Virus record (IMG/VR): IMGVR_UViG_3300045988_105900
DNA from: a virus
Direction: 5' to 3' (one strand)
Length of the DNA: 33,704 bases
Shown here: one piece after another, positions 2,988 through 15,100 of the stretch
Numbering within the stretch: the stretch's first letter is position 1
Layout: each line of letters begins with the position of its first letter
Program-made: the position numbers and the translations under genes
The notes under the pieces: model-generated
What the model saw: only the letters and a program-made list of their open reading frames with translations
The model's database searches: none
Told to the model about the DNA's origin: nothing

Positions 2988-3159
2988 AAACCAAGCCCGC
3001 ACCATCCAAGAGTCGCTCGGACGGCAACTCGACGCGCTGCCAGACGATTACGACAATCCGAAAACGCTGAAAGCGCGAATGGATCTGCGCAGGGCGTATA
3101 ATGCTGCTACGGACATCGTGGAACTCACGATGCGGTTAAGATTGGAAAGATTGGTATGA
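2962..3159 (+). CDS. Hypothetical helical protein
   Basis: TTG start. The ORF fills the gap and is coupled (ATGA) to the next gene. Confidence 0.4.
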   Translation: MTASIQTIENQARTIQESLGRQLDALPDDYDNPKTLKARMDLRRAYNAATDIVELTMRLRLERLV

Positions 3160-3644
3160 ACTTCAAACGACACTTGAATCAGCGAATCCGACTAGTGGAA
3201 GGAATGGACCCGAATGCGACCGGTACCGGAATGGGAGGCTCTGAAGGCCAGACTGGAAGCCCAGAAGCCACGACACAGCAGGAGCCGACAATCACCCAAG
3301 CCCAGCTCGACGCCATCATCAGCCGAAAGCTCGCCAAGGAACGCGAAAAGCTCGAAGCGGCCCAGAAAGCAGCCGAAGACGCCAGAAAATTAGCCGAGGA
3401 AACCGAAGCGCGCGTCAAGGAAGCCCGCAACAAGGGAATCAGCCTTGGCCTGTTGCAGGCGAAGCGCAACGCCATCGCCGAACAGTACGGGCTGAGCACC
3501 GAACTCCTGCCGGAAGACGAAACACGACTCGACGAATTCGAAAAGCAGCTCGCCGCAAGCATCAACAGCCGCACGCGCGTCACGCCGGTGACCGTCGAAC
3601 CGACCGCCAAGACGCCCGACTGGATGGGTGCAGCTCATGCGTGA
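3156..3644 (+). CDS. Scaffolding-like protein (DUF4355-like)
   Basis: Low-complexity N-terminus followed by TQAQLDAIISRKLAKEREKLEAAQKAAEDARKLAEE, a coiled coil typical of phage capsid scaffold proteins. Confidence 0.5.
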   Translation: MNFKRHLNQRIRLVEGMDPNATGTGMGGSEGQTGSPEATTQQEPTITQAQLDAIISRKLAKEREKLEAAQKAAEDARKLAEETEARVKEARNKGISLGLLQAKRNAIAEQYGLSTELLPEDETRLDEFEKQLAASINSRTRVTPVTVEPTAKTPDWMGAAHA

Positions 3645-7009: not shown

Positions 7010-8458
7010 ATGCTGGTGAAGAACCCAAACTGGAGGGCTAACGTACGCCCAACATCCGACGTGGCAATCATGGCCGCGGAATACGTGAACTGGGGCCGCG
7101 GAAACGCAATCCTCCCATTCCAAGTCGAATTCCTCAACAACGCCTTCCAACGCAAGAAGGACGGCACTTGGAAATACAAGCGCGTCGCATTGAACATGCC
7201 GCGACAGAACGGCAAGACCAAAATCCTCACCGCACCAATCCTCTACTACCTGTTCGTACTCGGCCTGAACGTGCTCGTCACCGCGCACGAGCAGATAGCC
7301 GCCAACAAAATCATGGAGGATTTGAAAGACGCCATCGACTCGAATTCAGAACTGAAGGCCGAAGTCACGCATTTCAGCACCACCATGGGCCGCGAGCGCC
7401 TACAGTTGAGGAATGGCGCGTTCGTCCGGTTCCGCTCCCGCAAGAGCGCTTCCGCGGGCATGGGCGGCACGTTCGATTTGGTTGTCTTCGACGAGGCGCA
7501 GGAGCTACGCTCAGAATACGAGGCGATGATTTCCAAGACCCTGAAGACGCGCCGCATGGCGATGATAATCTACACGGGCACCCCGTTCCTCCCATCGTCC
7601 ATCGGAGACACGTTCAACGTGTTCCTCGACAACGCAGAAAACGACGATATGGCGTATGCGGTGCGTTATGGCATCGATGACGAGACCGCGGACATCGAGG
7701 ATGAGCAGTTGTGGGCGCTCACCAACCCGCTCTACCCGGACGTGATTCCACGCGAAGCGTTCCTCACCGACGTGGCGATAGCCAAACAGGGTGGCGCGGA
7801 CGGCCTCATCGACTTCCGCATTCAAGACTTGGGCCTGTGGTGGGCGGACAGCATTCCGCCAGCAATCCCAATGGACTTGTGGGACAGCGCATATTCCGAC
7901 CTCCAACATGACCGCGATACGCTCGTCTACGCGCTCACCTTCGACCCGGCAACCAGCACGCTCGCCCTGTCCGTGGCTGCGAGCACCGAAGAGGTGACGG
8001 TCGGCTCGCAGCATTACGACAAGTGGGCGTACATCATCGGCGAAATCGTGGACGAGCGCCCCACCACCGAATCATGGCAGTGGGTCGTGGACGAATTGAA
8101 GACACGCCCACGCAAGACCACGCTCATCTTGGACGCTGGCGGCTTGAACAATCCGATAAGGGACATGCTTCCGCGCGGATTGAACGTGGTCCAGCTGACC
8201 GGCACCGAATTCCTCGCATCCCAGCAGGGATTCCTCGACCTGTTGAACGAGGGACGGTTCAAGCATACGAACAATCCGCAACTGACCGCAGAAGTGCAGA
8301 ACGCGCAGAAGCTCAAATCCGGTTCGGATGACCAGTGGAAGTTCGCTCCGATACGCAAGACCGAAACCACGGCTGGACTGAAGGGAGTGTCCATCGCCGC
8401 ATGGTATCGCGGCGTCAACCGTCCGAAGGAACGTCAGGTCAGGGAGGTGATAGCGTAA
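7010..8458 (+). CDS. terL: Terminase large subunit
   Basis: Walker A MPRQNGKTK, Walker B DLVVFDEAQE, an ATPase-then-nuclease layout and a length of 482 aa. Confidence 0.9.
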   Translation: MLVKNPNWRANVRPTSDVAIMAAEYVNWGRGNAILPFQVEFLNNAFQRKKDGTWKYKRVALNMPRQNGKTKILTAPILYYLFVLGLNVLVTAHEQIAANKIMEDLKDAIDSNSELKAEVTHFSTTMGRERLQLRNGAFVRFRSRKSASAGMGGTFDLVVFDEAQELRSEYEAMISKTLKTRRMAMIIYTGTPFLPSSIGDTFNVFLDNAENDDMAYAVRYGIDDETADIEDEQLWALTNPLYPDVIPREAFLTDVAIAKQGGADGLIDFRIQDLGLWWADSIPPAIPMDLWDSAYSDLQHDRDTLVYALTFDPATSTLALSVAASTEEVTVGSQHYDKWAYIIGEIVDERPTTESWQWVVDELKTRPRKTTLILDAGGLNNPIRDMLPRGLNVVQLTGTEFLASQQGFLDLLNEGRFKHTNNPQLTAEVQNAQKLKSGSDDQWKFAPIRKTETTAGLKGVSIAAWYRGVNRPKERQVREVIA

Positions 8459-8742
8459 TGGGCAAGGATACCGGACTCTACCGCCGCAACCGCACCATCC
8501 TGCGCGAACGCACCAAACGTACTGGAGCGCCATGCTATTATTGCGGCGAACCGTTCTACTGGGGTCGTAACACTGCGCATCCTCTGGCGTTCACCGCAGA
8601 CCATGTGATACCGCGCGCCGCCGGTGGAAGCGACAGGATGGACAATCTCGTTCCAGCGCACATGCAGTGCAACCGCGCCAAGTCGGACCATATAGCAAGT
8701 CCGGCGACACGCCGAACGCGAACTGCGACGAGAAGGTGGTAG
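8458..8742 (+). CDS. HNH endonuclease
   Basis: TAATG coupling to terL with GGGAGGTG as RBS. CYYCGEP...ADHVIPRAAGGSDRMDNLVPAHMQCNRAKSD is a classical HNH motif. Confidence 0.9.
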   Translation: MGKDTGLYRRNRTILRERTKRTGAPCYYCGEPFYWGRNTAHPLAFTADHVIPRAAGGSDRMDNLVPAHMQCNRAKSDHIASPATRRTRTATRRW

Positions 8743-8830: not shown

Positions 8831-9070
8831 TTATGCTATGTATTGGAGATGGTCGGCAGACATTCGAAGCTTCGTTATCATGCCAAGCCCGACCGTCTCC
8901 TCTTCAAAAGGTACGGACTTGAACCGCCCGGCACAGTCGTTAAACAATGCATGGGCATACCCACTGGGCGACCGTGGGGTTGAGGCGCACACAGCCGGAA
9001 ACAATCGTGGTAGAGGCCAAGTCGGGGCCGCAATGCAGAAGGCCGACACCATCAACCACGAAAGGCAGTC

Positions 9071-10114
9071 ATGTCCCTAGCGACAATCGAACTGAAGCCC
9101 GGCTTCGTAGACCGCAAGCTGATTTCCGAACAGCCCGCAGCCGGAGCCATCGCAAAGATTTCCAACAGCACCCCAATCGACCTCATCGGCACTCAGATGC
9201 AGACCATCGACTTCTCCGGCGAAATGGGCATCTTCGGCGAAGGAGCCACCGGCGAAACCGAAGCCGAAAAGAAGAAGTCTTCCAACGACGCCACCAACGG
9301 AGTCGTGACCATCAACCCAATCACCTTCTACATCTCCTACCGTTTCCCGAAGAAGTTCCTCCAACTGTTCGGCGTTGACGGCGCATACAATCCGACCGAC
9401 GCCACCTTCCGCGCCGGCTCCCCGCAGACCATGCTCCAAAGCATCCTCGCACAGCCGTATCAGGCTGGTATTCTCGACCAGTACCGCACGTACGTGAACC
9501 GTGCAATCAGCCGCGCACTCGACTTCGCCCCAATCTTCGGCATCAACCCGGCCACCAAGGCCGCTTCCACCGTCGCACGCACCAACGGATACGTGCTCGA
9601 ACATGCCGGCGACATCAACTACACTCCGGGCACCGGAGTGGAAGCAGCCACCGCGTTCAAGCAGGCCGTGCGACAGGTCGCCGCACAGGGCGACGCTTCA
9701 GCGCAGGGCGTCACCACCTCCGCCTACTTGGCCTCCATCGGCGACGGCCTCACCACCATCGGTACGCCAACCCAGTATGCGTCCGACGTTCCGCTCATTG
9801 GCAACATGGTCAACCTCGGCGGCGTCACCCTCGCAGCCTCTAACACCGTGTCCGACACCGCCGCGGCCACCGGCTCCGGCCAGCTGGAGAACAAGGTGCT
9901 CGATGCGGTCATCGGCGACTTCGCCAACCGTTTCGTCTGGGGCGCAATCCCACTGTCCGGCATCGAAGTGTTCGACTCCGGCAATCCGGACAATTCCACC
10001 GAAGGCGACTTGGGCGCTGTCAACAAGGTGATGCTCCGCACCGAAGTCGCAATCGGCTGGGGCTTCATCGGCGGAACCAGCAAGTTCTACGCCATCACCC
10101 ACGCCACCGAGTGA
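9071..10114 (+). CDS. Major capsid protein (HK97 fold)
   Basis: 347 aa with a strong codon pattern. The C-terminal DLGAVNKVMLRTEVAIGWGF resembles the HK97-family 'dl...n.v.lraE' block. Position is directly before the tail genes. Confidence 0.8.
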   Translation: MSLATIELKPGFVDRKLISEQPAAGAIAKISNSTPIDLIGTQMQTIDFSGEMGIFGEGATGETEAEKKKSSNDATNGVVTINPITFYISYRFPKKFLQLFGVDGAYNPTDATFRAGSPQTMLQSILAQPYQAGILDQYRTYVNRAISRALDFAPIFGINPATKAASTVARTNGYVLEHAGDINYTPGTGVEAATAFKQAVRQVAAQGDASAQGVTTSAYLASIGDGLTTIGTPTQYASDVPLIGNMVNLGGVTLAASNTVSDTAAATGSGQLENKVLDAVIGDFANRFVWGAIPLSGIEVFDSGNPDNSTEGDLGAVNKVMLRTEVAIGWGFIGGTSKFYAITHATE

Positions 10115-10130
10115 CCTCACCCGCATATGA

Positions 10131-10154
10131 GGGAGGCGACAATGCCGCCCTCCC
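10131..10154 (+). terminator. Imperfect hairpin between the capsid and tail-tube genes (possible attenuator)
   Basis: gggaggcg / cgcc(c)tccc stem with one bulge. No T tract. Confidence 0.3.
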
Positions 10155-10189
10155 CACCGATAGAACGTTAAACTACGAAAGGAAATGAG

Positions 10190-10789
10190 ATGGGCGCAAA
10201 GCAGTCTTCCGCAAACGTGACATTCTCGAAGCCGGGTACCAGTGCCAACAAGTCCGGCTATATTTGGGTCGCCCCATTGGGCACCGCCGTCCCCACCGAC
10301 GCCACCGCCGAACTGGATGCGGCGTTCGTCGGCCTCGGCTACCTGTCCGAAGACGGCCTGACTGAACCGGCATCCCTCACCGCAGGCGATGACATCGTTG
10401 CCGCGGGCGGCGATACCGTCGCACAGGCCGACCCGACGTTCTCCAAGACGTGGACCGGCACGTGCATCGAAGCGTTGAACGAAGACCTCCTCAAGGTCTC
10501 CTACGGTTCCGCCAACGTGACCGTCACCGACGCCACCGAGAGCAAGGATGGCGTTATCACCGTCAAGGAGCAGGCCGGAGACCTTGAACATCATGTCATC
10601 GTCATCGACGAAATGCTGAAGGGTGGCCGAAAGCGTCGCAACGTGATGCCTGACGCGACGTTCCTCATCACCGGCGATATCAGCCACGTGCATACCGCTC
10701 TGGTGAACTTCGAGTTCACCATCAACGCTTATCCGACCGCCGACAAGCCCGCACAGACCCAGTACATCACCATCCCAAAAAAAGCGTAG
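10190..10789 (+). CDS. Major tail (tube) protein
   Basis: GAAAGGAAA RBS. GYIWVAPLGTAVPTDATAELDAAFVGLGYLSEDGL matches the siphovirus major-tail pattern. The gene ends ...CCC AAA AAA GCG TAG. Confidence 0.8.
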   Translation: MGAKQSSANVTFSKPGTSANKSGYIWVAPLGTAVPTDATAELDAAFVGLGYLSEDGLTEPASLTAGDDIVAAGGDTVAQADPTFSKTWTGTCIEALNEDLLKVSYGSANVTVTDATESKDGVITVKEQAGDLEHHVIVIDEMLKGGRKRRNVMPDATFLITGDISHVHTALVNFEFTINAYPTADKPAQTQYITIPKKA

Positions 10790-10822
10790 ACTCTCCAAAT
10801 CCGAGCCTTACGGTCACCGTCC

Positions 10823-11485
10823 GTGACACGACCGTACCGTCAGGCGGGCATCATGTGGCTCATCGGCGACTGGGGTCAGAAAGACCCTTGGACCAGAGCT
10901 TCTGGCGTGCAGATGGTTAGGGGTGAGGATGGCTTGTACACCGGCGTCCTCACCCTGCCGAAAGGCACAAAGTTCGACCTGAAGATTCTGAAGAATCCTA
11001 CGGCTGGTCAGCTAATCTGGAGCGCGACACGGTATACTAGCGTTCTGAACTCGGATGGTGTCTACGATTTTGGAGAGTTTACCGACAATCTTGTTCCGAA
11101 CGGCAACTTCGAAGAAGGTGACGTGAAATGGACTCCAACGGGTCTTATCTGCAAGAACAGTGCTGCGCACGGTGGGCAGAACGTGCTGGTATTATCAAAT
11201 GATGGTAGCAGCGCGTCTTCTGACACGTTCGTTATTCCACCGAATCAAGTTTTCGCATGCTCATTCTACTTCCTCTCTTGGGTTAACCCGAGAGGTTCGC
11301 GCATCATAGTGAAGAACGTCGATACGCAATCCGTCCTGTTTGAATACTCGAACATGGGTGAAGTCACTAGGCGTTGGGTATCGTTTTCCGGAAAGTTCAA
11401 GTCAGGAAACTCACCAGTAAGGGCACAGGTTATTTGCGAGGCGAAAAATGGTCAATTCGATGACCTTTCGCTTGTCTCACCGTGA
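10823..11485 (+). CDS. Dual carbohydrate-binding-module protein (CBM48/CBM20-like N-terminal half, CBM4_9-like C-terminal half)
   Basis: IMWLIGDWGQKDPW...VQMVRGEDGLYTGVLTLPKGTKFDLKILK matches the 'V.L.GDFN.W...M...G.W...LP.G..Y.Y' pattern. NLVPNGNFEEGDVKWTP matches the CBM4_9 opening. Start is GTG 10823 or ATG 10853, and neither has an RBS. It is in the same frame as the tail-tube gene. GC is about 50% in sampled 60-mers versus about 67% in the neighbour. Confidence 0.7.
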   Translation: MTRPYRQAGIMWLIGDWGQKDPWTRASGVQMVRGEDGLYTGVLTLPKGTKFDLKILKNPTAGQLIWSATRYTSVLNSDGVYDFGEFTDNLVPNGNFEEGDVKWTPTGLICKNSAAHGGQNVLVLSNDGSSASSDTFVIPPNQVFACSFYFLSWVNPRGSRIIVKNVDTQSVLFEYSNMGEVTRRWVSFSGKFKSGNSPVRAQVICEAKNGQFDDLSLVSP

Positions 11486-11501
11486 CAATCTCATAGGAAC
11501 C

Positions 11502-11544
11502 ATACCCCACATGCCAGTTTCATCTTGACCGGCATGTGGGGTAT
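11502..11544 (+). terminator. 14-bp perfect hairpin after the CBM gene
   Basis: ataccccacatgcc (11502-11515) pairs with ggcatgtggggtat (11531-11544) across a 15-nt loop. No U tract. Confidence 0.5.
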
Positions 11545-11584
11545 CCTTATAAATGAACACAATACAGTTCGAAAGGAAAGACCA

Positions 11585-11869
11585 ATGGCAAAACGCAAGC
11601 CAACCATCACCATCGAAGACTTCAACGACAATTGGGGAGACGCCTACGCGAAACTCCTCCGCAACCGCAAATTCCAACAGGCCATCCACTCCGAAAAAGT
11701 CGAAGACGGCGTGGAAACCATCTGGCTCGTAGACAAGCTCATGCGCGGCGTGCTGAAGGAAAACAAGTACGAAGCGGTCATGAACGCATTCGACGATGAT
11801 GTGCTCGACGCATGGGAATACCTCTCGGGAAAATTGCCAGCGCTTTTGGATTCACAGTCGAAAGACTGA
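11585..11869 (+). CDS. Tail assembly chaperone (G-like)
   Basis: AAGGAAAG RBS before ATG 11585 (the track ORF starts at 11525). Position is immediately upstream of the tape measure gene, and the ORF contains the slip site. Confidence 0.75.
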   Translation: MAKRKPTITIEDFNDNWGDAYAKLLRNRKFQQAIHSEKVEDGVETIWLVDKLMRGVLKENKYEAVMNAFDDDVLDAWEYLSGKLPALLDSQSKD

Positions 11870-12171
11870 CCTACGCGATAAACCCCGACCAGTGGGACGG
11901 CCAAATCTTGGCCGACTTCGCAAGCCAATACGGCAGTCCCAGAAACTACACTCTCATAGAGAGAGCCAAACTCATAGGCACGTTCGGAGCGACGGCACGA
12001 CTCTTGGACATCATCCAACAGTCAATACTAGCCCCATACAGCGGCAAGGGCAGGAAGCCAAAAAGCGTACTCCCCGCCAATCAGAAGAACACCAAAACGG
12101 AGGATTATGAACTCGATTCGATGAACACCGAAGACATCGACAAGGCGTTGGGTCTTCACCGAAAGGAATAG
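11812..12171 (+). CDS. T-like extension of the tail assembly chaperone (expressed as a 11585..11833/11833..12171 fusion)
   Basis: The -1 frame overlaps the 3' end of the G-like ORF and ends 4 nt before the tape measure start. Confidence 0.7.
   Translation: MGIPLGKIASAFGFTVERLTYAINPDQWDGQILADFASQYGSPRNYTLIERAKLIGTFGATARLLDIIQQSILAPYSGKGRKPKSVLPANQKNTKTEDYELDSMNTEDIDKALGLHRKE
11827..11833 (+). promoter_or_regulatory. -1 programmed frameshift heptamer G GGA AAA
   Basis: Zero-frame codons are tcG GGA AAA. The -1 frame continues GKIASAFGFTVERL..., which is ORF 11812..12171. This is the same type as the lambda G/GT site GGGAAAG. Confidence 0.8.
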
Positions 12172-12174
12172 CAG

Positions 12175-15100
12175 ATGGCAAAGGGCAGCATCGCAACCGC
12201 ATGGATACAGGTACTCCCATCATTGGAAGGCCTGCAATCCGCATTGGTAAAAGCCAGCAAGGGCGCGGTGCTCACCCCCACCGTCCAACCGAAAATATCA
12301 GGGTCGGCAAGCCGCATGTTCAAAAACAGCGGCACCGGCCTGTCATCCATCTTCTCCGGCTCGTTCGCCAAAAACCTCAACCTGCAAGACGGCGTGAAAG
12401 GTGCGCTCAGCGGCGTGCTCGCATCCTTCACCACAGGCGGACAGCGTTCCGCCAACGCCTTCGGCAACAGTTTCAGCAACCTCAACATCGGCAAATACCT
12501 GAACACGGCGGCAGTTGTCGCCGGAGTCGTATCAGTCTCCCACGCCGTCAAGAACGTGACCTCCAACGTCATCGAGCTCGGCAACCAGTGGGGTCAGACC
12601 ACCGCCATGCTGAAGAACGCGGTAGGCACCACCGGAGACTATAAAAGCTCGCTCGAAACATCACTGGAGTATGCGAACAAGGTTGGAGTCGCCACGGACG
12701 ATTTCGTCCAATCCGCCTCACGCCTGCGCACGCTCGCGCCTGAAGTCGTAACCAACTACAGTGATGCGGCGAAATTCACCAAACTGCTCGACATGAACAT
12801 GGTCAGCACCGGCGCATCCACTCAGGAAGCGTCCAGCGCCATGCGTCAGATTACCCAAGCATTGGGCAAGGGCATCGTGAACGGCGACGAACTGAACTCC
12901 ATCATGGAGAACTCGCCGCAAATCGCGCGAATGCTCGCCAAGCATCTCAACGTTTCCGTAGGCGAACTGAAACAGTTGGGCAAGGAAGGCGAAATCAGCG
13001 GCCAAGCCCTCTACGATACGGTGCTTGAAAACGCGGACGCCATCGAAAAGCAGTTCGCCGCCATGCCCGTCACGGCAGACCGCGCATGGAACAGCATCAA
13101 GAACACGATTGGCGAAAGGTCCGCGGAAGCGGCGACCTCGGTATCGGCCAACATCGGTAAGACATTGAAAGCCATCTCCGATTCGGGCATGGTGGATACG
13201 TTCGGCGAAATGCTCGCAGGATTCGTACCATTGACGAACGCAGCTTCCACACTGGCTGTAACGTTCATCAATCAGCTGGCTCCAGCCGTCAACAAGGCGT
13301 TCAACGCGCAGCAGGTCGAACAGTTCCTCGCCCCGTTGACGAACCTTATCAGCGCGAACTCGCAGAACATCAACCTCCTAACCTCATTGGGTGACATTCT
13401 GAACACGGTAGGCGTCATCGGAACCACCGTATTCTCCCTCATGGTCGCCACGAACGACCGGTTCGCCTCGCGCATCCCGTTCATCGGTACCGCACTGGTT
13501 GGCGTGAAGAACACGCTCATCAAACTCGGCTCCAGCTTCACCAGCGCGTTCGGCGCAGCGGTGTCCGCATCGTCCACGGCAATCGACAAGCTCGCCTCCA
13601 TGGCCGACGCGATGTCGAAAACATTGGCGGAATCGACGAAAGTGCAGAACGCGCTCGGCAGATTCAACGTAGCGTTCGAAGACTTGGGTTCATGCGCGTT
13701 CAGCTTCGGACAGAAAGGCGCGGAAGGCTTCGGCATCGTCGAGCAGGCCGCAGTGAACCTGTGGAACGGCGTCGGACAGGTATCCGACAACGTGAAGCTT
13801 CTCCAAAACGGTTTGAACATGATGGGTTCAGACGTGGACGCGCTTCCCGAAGCGTTTACCACCGCGTTCGAAACCCTCAGCACCGAAGTGGACGTCGCCG
13901 CACGGAAGAAGGCTCCAGCCCTCATTCAGGCGTTCAATGACATTCGTGCAGCCGTTGACACCATCGTAGTGGATTCGGACATCTACCGTACGTTGGACAC
14001 TGCCGGACAGAGCGCCGACATCTACCGTGACAAGCTCGTGCAGGTGGGCCGCGAATTCAAGGAGCTTACCGGCTTCGACATTCCGAACGTGTTCCTCCCA
14101 TTGGTCGGTTCTGCGGTGTCCGCGTCCGACAGCATCATGCAGACGTTCGGCAACCTGAAGGCCGGACTGTCCAACTATGCCGAAAACACGGCGCAGCAGT
14201 GGGCTCCGGTCAAGGAGATTTTCACCGAAATCTTCTCCAGCGCGTCCGCCGCAGCCAAGACGAAGATGGAAGTTCTTCGAGCCGACGTGGAATCCGGCGT
14301 GCTCACCATGGTTGAGAACGTGAAAGGCAAGGCGGCTGAATTCAAGACTGTGTTCAGTGAAATGCTGGACTCGACCGGTATCAGCAACACCATGTCCAAA
14401 CTCGGGTCTGCGGTAAGCAGCGGACTCTCCTCCGTCAAGGGCGGACTCAAATCGTTCGGTTCTGAAGCGGCATCCACATTGTCCATTCCGTTCCGTGGAA
14501 TTCCGGAAAAGATTTTCGGCTCGTTCAAAGGACAGAATCCGTTCACGCCGTTGACATCCGCGGCGAAGACGGTCGGTGCCGGACTTTCCGCCACGTTGGG
14601 CGGTGCGGTAACACGTCTCGTCGGACGGTTCGCACCACTGGCGTCCGCTGGAAAGGTGGCCTTCTCCGCCATTGGCTCCGCAGCGTTGAAAGTGTCTTCC
14701 GGCGCGTTGAAAGGTTTCGGCGCAGCCGTGAATGGAGTCGGCGCGGCAATCGGCAAGATTGGCGGCATCGCATCATCCTTGGGTGTGACTGGCGCATTGT
14801 TCACCGGCCTGACCACCGGATTCCAGACATTGTTCAAGCTTGACCCGAGTCAGATGGCCGGAAAGTTCGAGGAATGGCAGTCGAGTCTCGACAATGCGAT
14901 GGAAGGCGTGCAGACGAAACTGCCGGCAATGGCGAGCGCGTTCGCCGCAGCCTTGCCACAGATGGTTTCCAGCGTCACCGTCGCACTGCCGGGCATCGCC
15001 AACGCTTTCGTAAGCGTAGGACAGACGCTCGGGCCGGCGTTGATGACGATTCTGCCGCAAATCACGCAGGCGTTCTCCACCATGTTCGCCCAGCTGCCCG

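Follow-up and report, generated by a model that had tools for sequence, protein, structure and literature searches.

How does an open reading frame (ORF) for two domains resembling carbohydrate-binding modules (CBMs) come to lie downstream of a phage tail-tube gene, in the same frame and with only one TAG between them? This is the arrangement in IMG/VR virus record IMGVR_UViG_3300045988_105900, a 33,704-nucleotide sequence referred to here as the window (Table 1). The first-pass annotation, made from the letters of the window, proposed that low-level amber read-through of this TAG attaches the CBM-like domains to a fraction of the tube subunits; its alternatives were that a formerly fused gene has been inactivated by a nonsense mutation, or that the downstream ORF is an independently translated moron. 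Comparison with related phages favors another explanation. The tube gene most probably (probability about 0.8) ends in a cassette for programmed -1 ribosomal frameshifting, of which the window carries a broken allele. On this comparison the shared reading frame is a by-product of a one-nucleotide insertion, not a read-through device.

Table 1. Features of the tube-gene locus in the window, with positions and strand
Feature	Positions	Strand	Details
Major tail (tube) protein gene	10190..10789	+	199 amino acids, 20.9 kDa; TAG at 10787-10789
Slippery site for -1 frameshifting (predicted)	10774..10783	+	C_CCA_AAA (10774-10780) overlapping A_AAA_AAA (10777-10783)
-1 reading from the slippery site	10774..10920	+	48 codons, TAG at 10918-10920
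First 25 codons of the -1 reading, PKKSVDSPNPSLTVTVRDTTVPSGG	10774-10848	+	Homologous to linker and first β-strand of relatives; rest of the -1 reading is out of frame
Outer 4-bp helix	10794-10797 with 10856-59	+	Begins 10 nt after the heptamer
Linker stem-loop, possible frameshift stimulator	10812..10839	+	RNAalifold; starts 29 nt after the heptamer (canonical relatives)
Extra G in GGG (GGCGGC to GGCGGGC)	10846..10848	+	From alignments against canonical relatives
Extension body	10850..11485	+	Frame 0 in the window; remainder of CBM20-like β-sandwich (to ~11090), CBM4/16/61-like β-jelly-roll (~11091-11482), TGA
Perfect 14-bp hairpin closing the module	11502..11544	+	Conserved in relatives; changes are G-U compatible on the + strand
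Promoter-like element	11525-11530 and 11548-11553	+	TTGACC, 17 nt, TATAAA; conserved; 3′ arm of the hairpin lies inside the spacer; just upstream of the chaperone gene
G/GT tail-assembly-chaperone -1 site	11827-11833	+	G_GGA_AAA; links ORF 11585-11869 to the -1-frame ORF ending at 12171

The slippery heptamer and the frame of the extension

The tube ORF, which ends in ATC CCA AAA AAA GCG TAG, matches Pfam family PF25681 (Phage_TTP_17, 2e-10) and the major tail protein profile phrog_117 (1.4e-35), the latter over positions 34-209 of its 319 only. The ORF list and a frame check bear out that the tube gene and the CBM ORF share a frame across a single TAG: positions 10190, 10823 and 10853 are all 2 mod 3, and frame 0 stays open for 231 codons past the TAG, to 11485. 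The A7 run reported near the tube stop is present at 10777-10783, and neither proposed start of the CBM ORF (GTG 10823, ATG 10853) has a Shine-Dalgarno sequence, as had been noted; the motif GAAAGG is absent at both and stands 7-10 nt 5′ of the start in all four neighbors checked (capsid, tube, chaperone G, and tape-measure genes). The reported drop in GC content within the CBM ORF is likewise found, at a milder size than had been estimated: 60.5% in the tube gene (78% at third codon positions, GC3) versus 50.6% in the CBM ORF (GC3 57%).

The shared frame is in itself unremarkable, because any +1 insertion in a linker of the type carried by the sister contig L083, in which frame 0 is open for 63 codons past the TAG, creates it automatically. 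As a chance check, at least 19 open 0-frame codons follow the tube stop in 11 of 27 relatives of the canonical, -1 type.

The comparison set comprises about 80 related Bifidobacterium phage genomes and contigs. Eight are isolated phages of Bifidobacterium pseudocatenulatum and Bifidobacterium adolescentis, 83-85% identical over positions 9000-12500, and four of these (BP677P4, BP677P1, BP742P1, and BA720P3) were read at the junction; the further loci are 73 from IMG/VR, plus assemblies and contigs from ENA and Logan. Loci in which the heptamer and the chaperone gene lie 780-870 nt apart (n = 64) are treated as carrying a full-size module.

Both overlapping heptamers of the window have the X_XXY_YYZ form and are in phase with the tube frame (codons CCA, AAA, AAA). 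About 76 of 78 related loci have C_CCA_AAA or one of its A-run variants at the end of the tube gene, with 3 nt between it and the stop; the exceptions are L060, with only A_AAA_AAA in phase, and L070, which is rearranged. This conservation goes beyond what the protein sequence requires, as the flanking codon and the stop vary. The codon before the heptamer is ATC, CTC, or GTC, its final C being invariant; the codon after it takes eight forms (GCG, GAG, GCC, GTG, AAG, CCG, CAG, and TCG); and the stop is TAA or TAG, with TAA in most. An A7 run recurs in L038, L040, L042, and L060, while most relatives have A4 only.

In the relatives, whether isolates or IMG/VR, ENA, and Logan loci, the extension sits in the -1 frame relative to the tube gene, and the in-frame layout seen in the window is not conserved. 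Starting at the heptamer, 28 of the 64 full-size loci have an uninterrupted -1 frame of 234-257 codons, which reads PK-SV.SPN..LTVTV.D.TV..GG.MW..GDWGQ, whereas the 0 frame meets its next stop 2-63 codons (mostly 4-41) past the tube stop. An in-frame ORF separated from the tube gene only by its stop was found in the window and in L084-L086. The pattern of substitution changes phase at the junction. Upstream of the heptamer, variation peaks at the third codon position of the tube frame (8.6 vs. 3.2 and 3.1); in the linker past the stop it peaks at the third position of the -1 frame (15.4 vs. 5.9 and 7.3). In 26 of the 29 intact relatives the earliest possible start codon (ATG, GTG, or TTG) of the -1 frame does not come until codon +19 or +25; since none precedes it, the conserved SV.SPN..LTVTV.D stretch cannot come from separate initiation. 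We argue from these comparisons that ribosomes enter the extension by way of the heptamer and do not start at the annotated ATG. The isolates examined list the extension ORF as a hypothetical protein of its own.

In the canonical form of the cassette, most ribosomes would terminate at the tube stop and release a tube protein of about 21 kDa, while we infer that a minority slips back one base on C_CCA_AAA. The slipped ribosomes would read the -1 linker and then the CBM20-like and CBM4/16-like domains, giving a tube-CBM fusion of about 46 kDa that would decorate a fraction of the tail-tube subunits and probably mediate weak glycan adhesion. For the phage group, the earlier idea of a CBM appended by recoding to a fraction of tube subunits is thus retained, and amber read-through as the means is not.

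An RNA structure may assist the shift. RNAalifold predicts a conserved stem-loop in the linker with one clearly compensatory pair at columns 45-54 (AU in 14 sequences, CG in 8, UA in 2). Pairing in the stem is 94.6% versus 89.3% in shuffled alignments, none of 500 shuffles reaches the observed value, and the stem exceeds all slid controls. Its strength differs among lineages, with z of -5.6 in L003, -4.0 in L011, and -0.35 in the window. It is a possible frameshift stimulator, and a contribution may come from the 0-frame stop 3 nt past the heptamer as well.

The fold of the extension was assessed on the AlphaFold model of P0064, a 49%-identical relative (predicted local distance difference test, pLDDT, 91.4 for the whole model) whose protein starts MTLTVTV; the Foldseek and strand evidence comes from this model, not from the window's own protein. 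Residues 2-8, the LTVTV stretch, are modeled as the first strand of the N-terminal β-sandwich (pLDDT ~92), and the first domain including this strand has a pLDDT of 83-95. The model thus places the first β-strand of the CBM20-like domain in the linker, upstream of the ATG, in agreement with the earlier proposal that the fold needs residues 5′ of Met 10853. When the frame-0 peptide of the window is modeled, the first domain reaches a pLDDT of 32-61 and the second 85-93. Foldseek matches the C-terminal domain of P0064 to CBM4-2 (4bj0, 2y6j), CBM16 (2zew), and CBM61 (2xon) structures, with E values of 2e-7 to 2e-6 and TM(target) of 0.60-0.67, and also to CenC-type CBMs of phage tail and receptor-binding proteins. 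A profile built from the homologue sequences matches an alginase N-terminal region (4q8k, E 2e-4) and, weakly, through the N-terminal domain, the CBM20 starch-binding domain 7czj (E 0.14).

By Pfam, CBM_20 scores 15.8 bits in the window and 18.3 bits once the -1 strand is restored, against a gathering cut-off of 23.3, and its profile coverage grows from 21-80 to 5-80 upon restoration. CBM_4_9 scores 15 bits in the window against a cut-off of 25.9; PF02018 is precomputed on several homologues. The dual-CBM assignment made earlier is therefore upheld by the predicted fold of P0064 and not by sequence thresholds, both scores lying below their cut-offs. "CBM20-like plus CBM4/16-like" is a fair description of the modeled domains, although the sequence score stays below the threshold for CBM20 membership. 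The domains would bind glycans. Between the window and BP677P4, the CBM module (10853-11485) is the least conserved gene, with 64% amino acid identity versus 92-98% for most structural neighbors. Its low identity, taken together with its lower GC3, suggests module exchange or fast evolution.

The broken allele and recurrent loss of the extension

The window retains the heptamer, lengthened to A7, but the extra G severs the CBM body from it. The insertion lies 24 codons into the extension: the sequence from IMWLIGDWGQ onward is now in frame 0, while PKKSVDSPNPSLTVTVRDTTVPSGG is still in the -1 frame. Because the CBM body has moved into the tube frame, the -1 product ends after 48 codons and frameshifting no longer reaches the body. 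The predicted frameshift product of the window has 242 amino acids (25.6 kDa) and carries PKKSVDSPNPSLTVTVR; this allele would make no functional CBM. Over 3.6 kb the sister contig L083 shares 99.7% identity with the window; it encodes an identical 210-amino acid CBM body and differs near the junction by two indels only, A4 versus A7 (one Lys codon) and GGCGGC versus GGCGGGC. Of the three initial alternatives, inactivation of a formerly fused gene comes closest to this picture, with two amendments: the lesion is the one-nucleotide insertion at 10846-10848 and not the TAG, and the former link would have been a -1 frameshift and not an in-frame fusion.

The combination of A7 and the extra G also occurs in L084, L085, and L086, which come from separate short-read assemblies (ERZ27289418, ERZ1032225, and ERZ28628790) and each show a few private single-nucleotide polymorphisms (SNPs). 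As the same allele is found in three other assemblies, it is real and not an error. All 46 genes of BP677P4 align to the window at full length and in a single frame, and no other gene of the window is broken. An exact search of IMG/VR with the window junction carrying GGG gave no match; among JGI metagenome contigs, the junction pattern with either GG or GGG identified one contig, L088, which has the canonical A4 and no extra G. Two ways of rescuing the body by a different shift were considered and rejected. For a +1 or -2 shift on A7, the +1 frame stops after 16 codons, and a corrective second +1 shift at GGC GGG CAT has neither a slippery nor a slow-codon feature.

Disruption of the extension is common across the group. 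The -1 ORF is interrupted by nonsense mutations or indels in 36 of the 64 full-size loci and intact in the other 28, while the flanking genes, checked in 62 of these loci, are intact in nearly all cases (capsid 46/47, tube 59/60, G 62/62, and T 59/62). Nonsense mutations recur at three Trp codons: W27 (L012, L032, and L089), W32 (L012, L019, and L073), and W122 (L021, L025, L036, and L048). The broken extensions include at least 13 separate 1-nt indels, and several +1 insertions in the linker resemble that of the window (L081, with three companion runs intact; L090/L015; and L063). Widespread sequencing error in IMG/VR was rejected as the cause of the breaks, given the intact capsid, tube, G, and T genes in the same loci and the same kinds of lesion in short-read ENA and Logan assemblies. 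On this pattern the decoration is dispensable, fast-evolving, and frequently lost.

It is tempting to go further and regard the extension as a hot spot of recurrent, possibly adaptive inactivation, an evolutionary toggle by which gut Bifidobacterium phages would switch the glycan adhesion of their virions on and off; this we hold to be doubtful. Under such a toggle, the A7 plus extra-G allele of the window would be one successful "off" state or, less likely, an allele rewired so that rare read-through of the TAG yields a little decorated tube.

Other lineages carry different extensions, consisting of the first domain only, of a low-complexity tail of 51-87 amino acids, or of an immunoglobulin (Ig)-like domain split between frames. 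The low-complexity -1 tails are short and acidic, with 81-87 amino acids in L035, L038, L042, L043, L046, and L060 and 51-61 in L053, L054, and L069. These lineages keep the first ~20 linker residues, and the hairpin and chaperone gene follow with hardly any gap; the A7 run is found in L038, L042, and L060 among them. In L026, L050, and L062 (positions ~3085-3400) an alternative Ig-like module, of Big_2 type as judged by eye, reads ATINVGESVQLKAKAVY ... WSASNDNATVD.NGMVTGRKAGSVTITAKD and is distributed over the -1 and +1 frames, the break falling at one common position in all three. This split module is either decayed or needs a second shift.

Weighing the alternatives

Several points weigh against a frameshift cassette broken in the window. 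The occurrence of frameshifting is deduced from comparative sequence only. Frameshift stimulators usually lie 5-9 nt downstream of the heptamer; the linker hairpin, at 29 nt, is beyond this range and is weak in the window's own lineage. Met 10853 is kept in at least 90% of homologues, so that some internal initiation is possible. The A7 run and the extra G are the sole differences from L083 within ~150 nt and co-occur in all four A7 haplotypes of the lineage, a pairing for which a broken cassette does not account. Finally, the broken allele has spread over several assemblies with its CBM ORF intact, which fits either a recent origin or residual use.

The conserved Met leads to the first alternative, an independent gene, in which the CBM ORF is translated from ATG 10853 (or GTG 10823) as a free protein of ~23 kDa, here and perhaps in all relatives. 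Gene callers annotate it in this way in all isolates, and re-initiation is conceivable with the tube stop 34-64 nt upstream. We nevertheless consider it improbable, and the earlier notion of an independent moron is not favored. The ORF lacks the GAAAGG Shine-Dalgarno motif, unlike the four neighbors checked; translation from the ATG would leave out the first strand of the fold; the linker shows coding constraint in the -1 frame despite having no start codon; Ile or Val replaces the Met in L007, L090, and P0081; and an independent gene leaves the invariant heptamer unexplained.

Amber read-through is very improbable. It would require that the TAG at 10787-10789 is sometimes decoded as sense, giving a frame-0 fusion of 431 amino acids in a rewired A7 plus extra-G lineage. 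The open frame from the TAG to 11485 and the persistence of the allele in at least four slightly different haplotypes are compatible with this, and L063 is comparable in that its whole extension is in frame 0 directly past a TAA. The open frame, however, follows automatically from the 63 open codons of L083. The peptide that read-through would insert, TLQIRALRSPSVTRPYRQAG, is what the conserved linker encodes when read out of frame; it takes the place of the first β-strand, and the first domain models poorly in this form compared with the relative that has the strand. The stop identity is equally unhelpful to read-through: the canonical sister L083 also ends its tube gene with TAG, and most relatives use TAA. 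In the +1-insertion lineage L090/L015, two more frame-0 stops leave no read-through path, so that +1 insertions arise without any such path; the L090 protein is present on 14 contigs. ARAGORN found no tRNA gene in the 33.7-kb genome, and therefore no phage-borne suppressor. Among the relatives there is no read-through signature, whether a conserved in-frame layout, a constant stop codon, or 0-frame coding after the stop; their CBM ORF lies in the -1 frame, further stops follow in frame 0, and the linker varies in the -1 phase.

A still smaller chance is given to transcriptional slippage, in which RNA polymerase would add one A in the A run and thereby produce the -1 frame. Bacteria are known to show slippage on A runs (PMC5009743), and A7 runs are present in the window, L038, L040, L042, and L060. 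Most relatives, however, have A4, too short for efficient polymerase slippage; the full in-phase X_XXY_YYZ motif including CCC is conserved, as tandem tRNA slippage predicts; and the same genome uses G_GGA_AAA for G/GT.

Least credible is an artefact in which the extra G, and perhaps the A7, are assembly or homopolymer errors in a phage of canonical -1 type: the site is a short G run and the linker is not annotated as coding, so that an error would pass gene-level quality checks, but A7 and GGG occur together in the three ERZ assemblies named above, each with its own few SNPs, and no other gene of the window is broken.

Neighboring elements, known systems, and significance

The 14-bp perfect hairpin reported after the CBM ORF was confirmed (11502-11515 paired with 11531-11544 around a 15-nt loop). 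In a scan for promoters and terminators, no sigma-70 site passed the strict rule applied, and the hairpin was not called an intrinsic terminator, given its 15-nt loop and lack of a T run. An Rfam scan of 10600-11700 gave only a chance match of a microRNA model to the 11502-11544 hairpin, far below threshold. The hairpin and the overlapping promoter-like element may act as a terminator or processing hairpin, as an internal promoter, or as both. Downstream, the relatives annotate the G and GT parts of the tail-assembly chaperone as separate overlapping genes. Upstream, between gene 12 and the capsid gene, an ORF on the + strand (8335-8742) corresponds to an unannotated stretch in BP677P4 and contains, as judged by eye, an HNH nuclease-like motif, ADHVIPRAAGGSDRMDNLVPAHMQCNRAKSD. 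The group was encountered only in the form of free phages and of virome or metagenome contigs ~33 kb long. A GTDB scan of bacterial genomes, one per species, found no relative of the tube protein, and there is therefore no evidence of a prophage state for the group.

Recoding of this general kind has several precedents. Lambda-type G/GT frameshifting uses the same slippery type, X_XXA_AAA/G, present in this genome as G_GGA_AAA; the G/GT product is an assembly chaperone outside the virion, whereas the tube site would lead to a structural decoration. Lactobacillus phage A2 uses a C_CCA_AAA heptamer as well. The A1 protein of phage Q-beta, a read-through form of the coat protein, is likewise a minor form of a structural protein lengthened at its C-terminus through recoding at the stop codon, and corresponds to what the first-pass annotation had proposed. 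Read-through of the A1 kind, however, needs an extension conserved in frame; in the present group it is the -1 frame that is conserved, and the in-frame layout is confined to one mutant lineage.

In lactococcal 936-group (Skunavirus) phages, frameshifting extends the major tail protein by TpeX, which carries a CBM (Hayes et al. 2019, PMC6669499) and whose host-specific binding has been demonstrated (PMC6669499). As would be the case here, a frameshift at the end of the major tail gene adds a CBM, and part of the tube subunits is decorated. The systems differ in that the CBM of TpeX is BppA-like and those of the Bifidobacterium phages are CBM20-like and CBM4/16-like, and in that the shift occurs after an Ig-like adhesin domain in 936 phages and directly after the tube core in Bifidobacterium phages. 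The host phylum, Actinomycetota, also differs from that of the 936 phages.

The review by Atkins et al. 2016 (PMC5009743) describes frameshift-made Ig-like extensions in phage T3 and Lactobacillus phage A2 and a tail-protein extension in SPP1. Listeria phage coat and tail genes also yield frameshift-made second products, the major tail gene by +1 frameshifting (PMC5009743). The major head and tail proteins of A2, the proteins of Listeria phages A118, A500, and PSA, and gp17.1* of Bacillus phage SPP1 (PMC5009743; PMC6669499) resemble the present case in that recoding close to the 3′ end of the gene extends a minority of a major virion protein at its C-terminus, and the extended form is built into the virion; the extensions of A2, the Listeria phages, and SPP1 are Ig-like or other domains, not CBM20- or CBM4-like. 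The cassette thus works like known frameshift-made tail-protein extensions, with different CBM folds and a different host phylum. No description of such frameshifting in Bifidobacterium phages was found in the searchable literature, whose coverage is incomplete, so that this is no proof of novelty.

For the human-gut Bifidobacterium phage group, the analysis amounts to a correction of annotation: the "hypothetical protein" 3′ of the tube gene is most likely no gene of its own but the C-terminal part of the major tail protein, reached by frameshifting, and a probable glycan adhesin displayed along the tail. For genome scanning, it shows that a single indel in a frameshift-dependent extension can mimic a read-through layout. 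Near-identical intact and broken alleles co-circulate, partly in assemblies with adjacent accession numbers, and provide a test case for the dispensability of the decoration, as they are directly comparable for adsorption, for mucus or exopolysaccharide binding, and for fitness. The mechanism itself is ordinary for phages; its repeated loss at the level of the population is the part that deserves attention.

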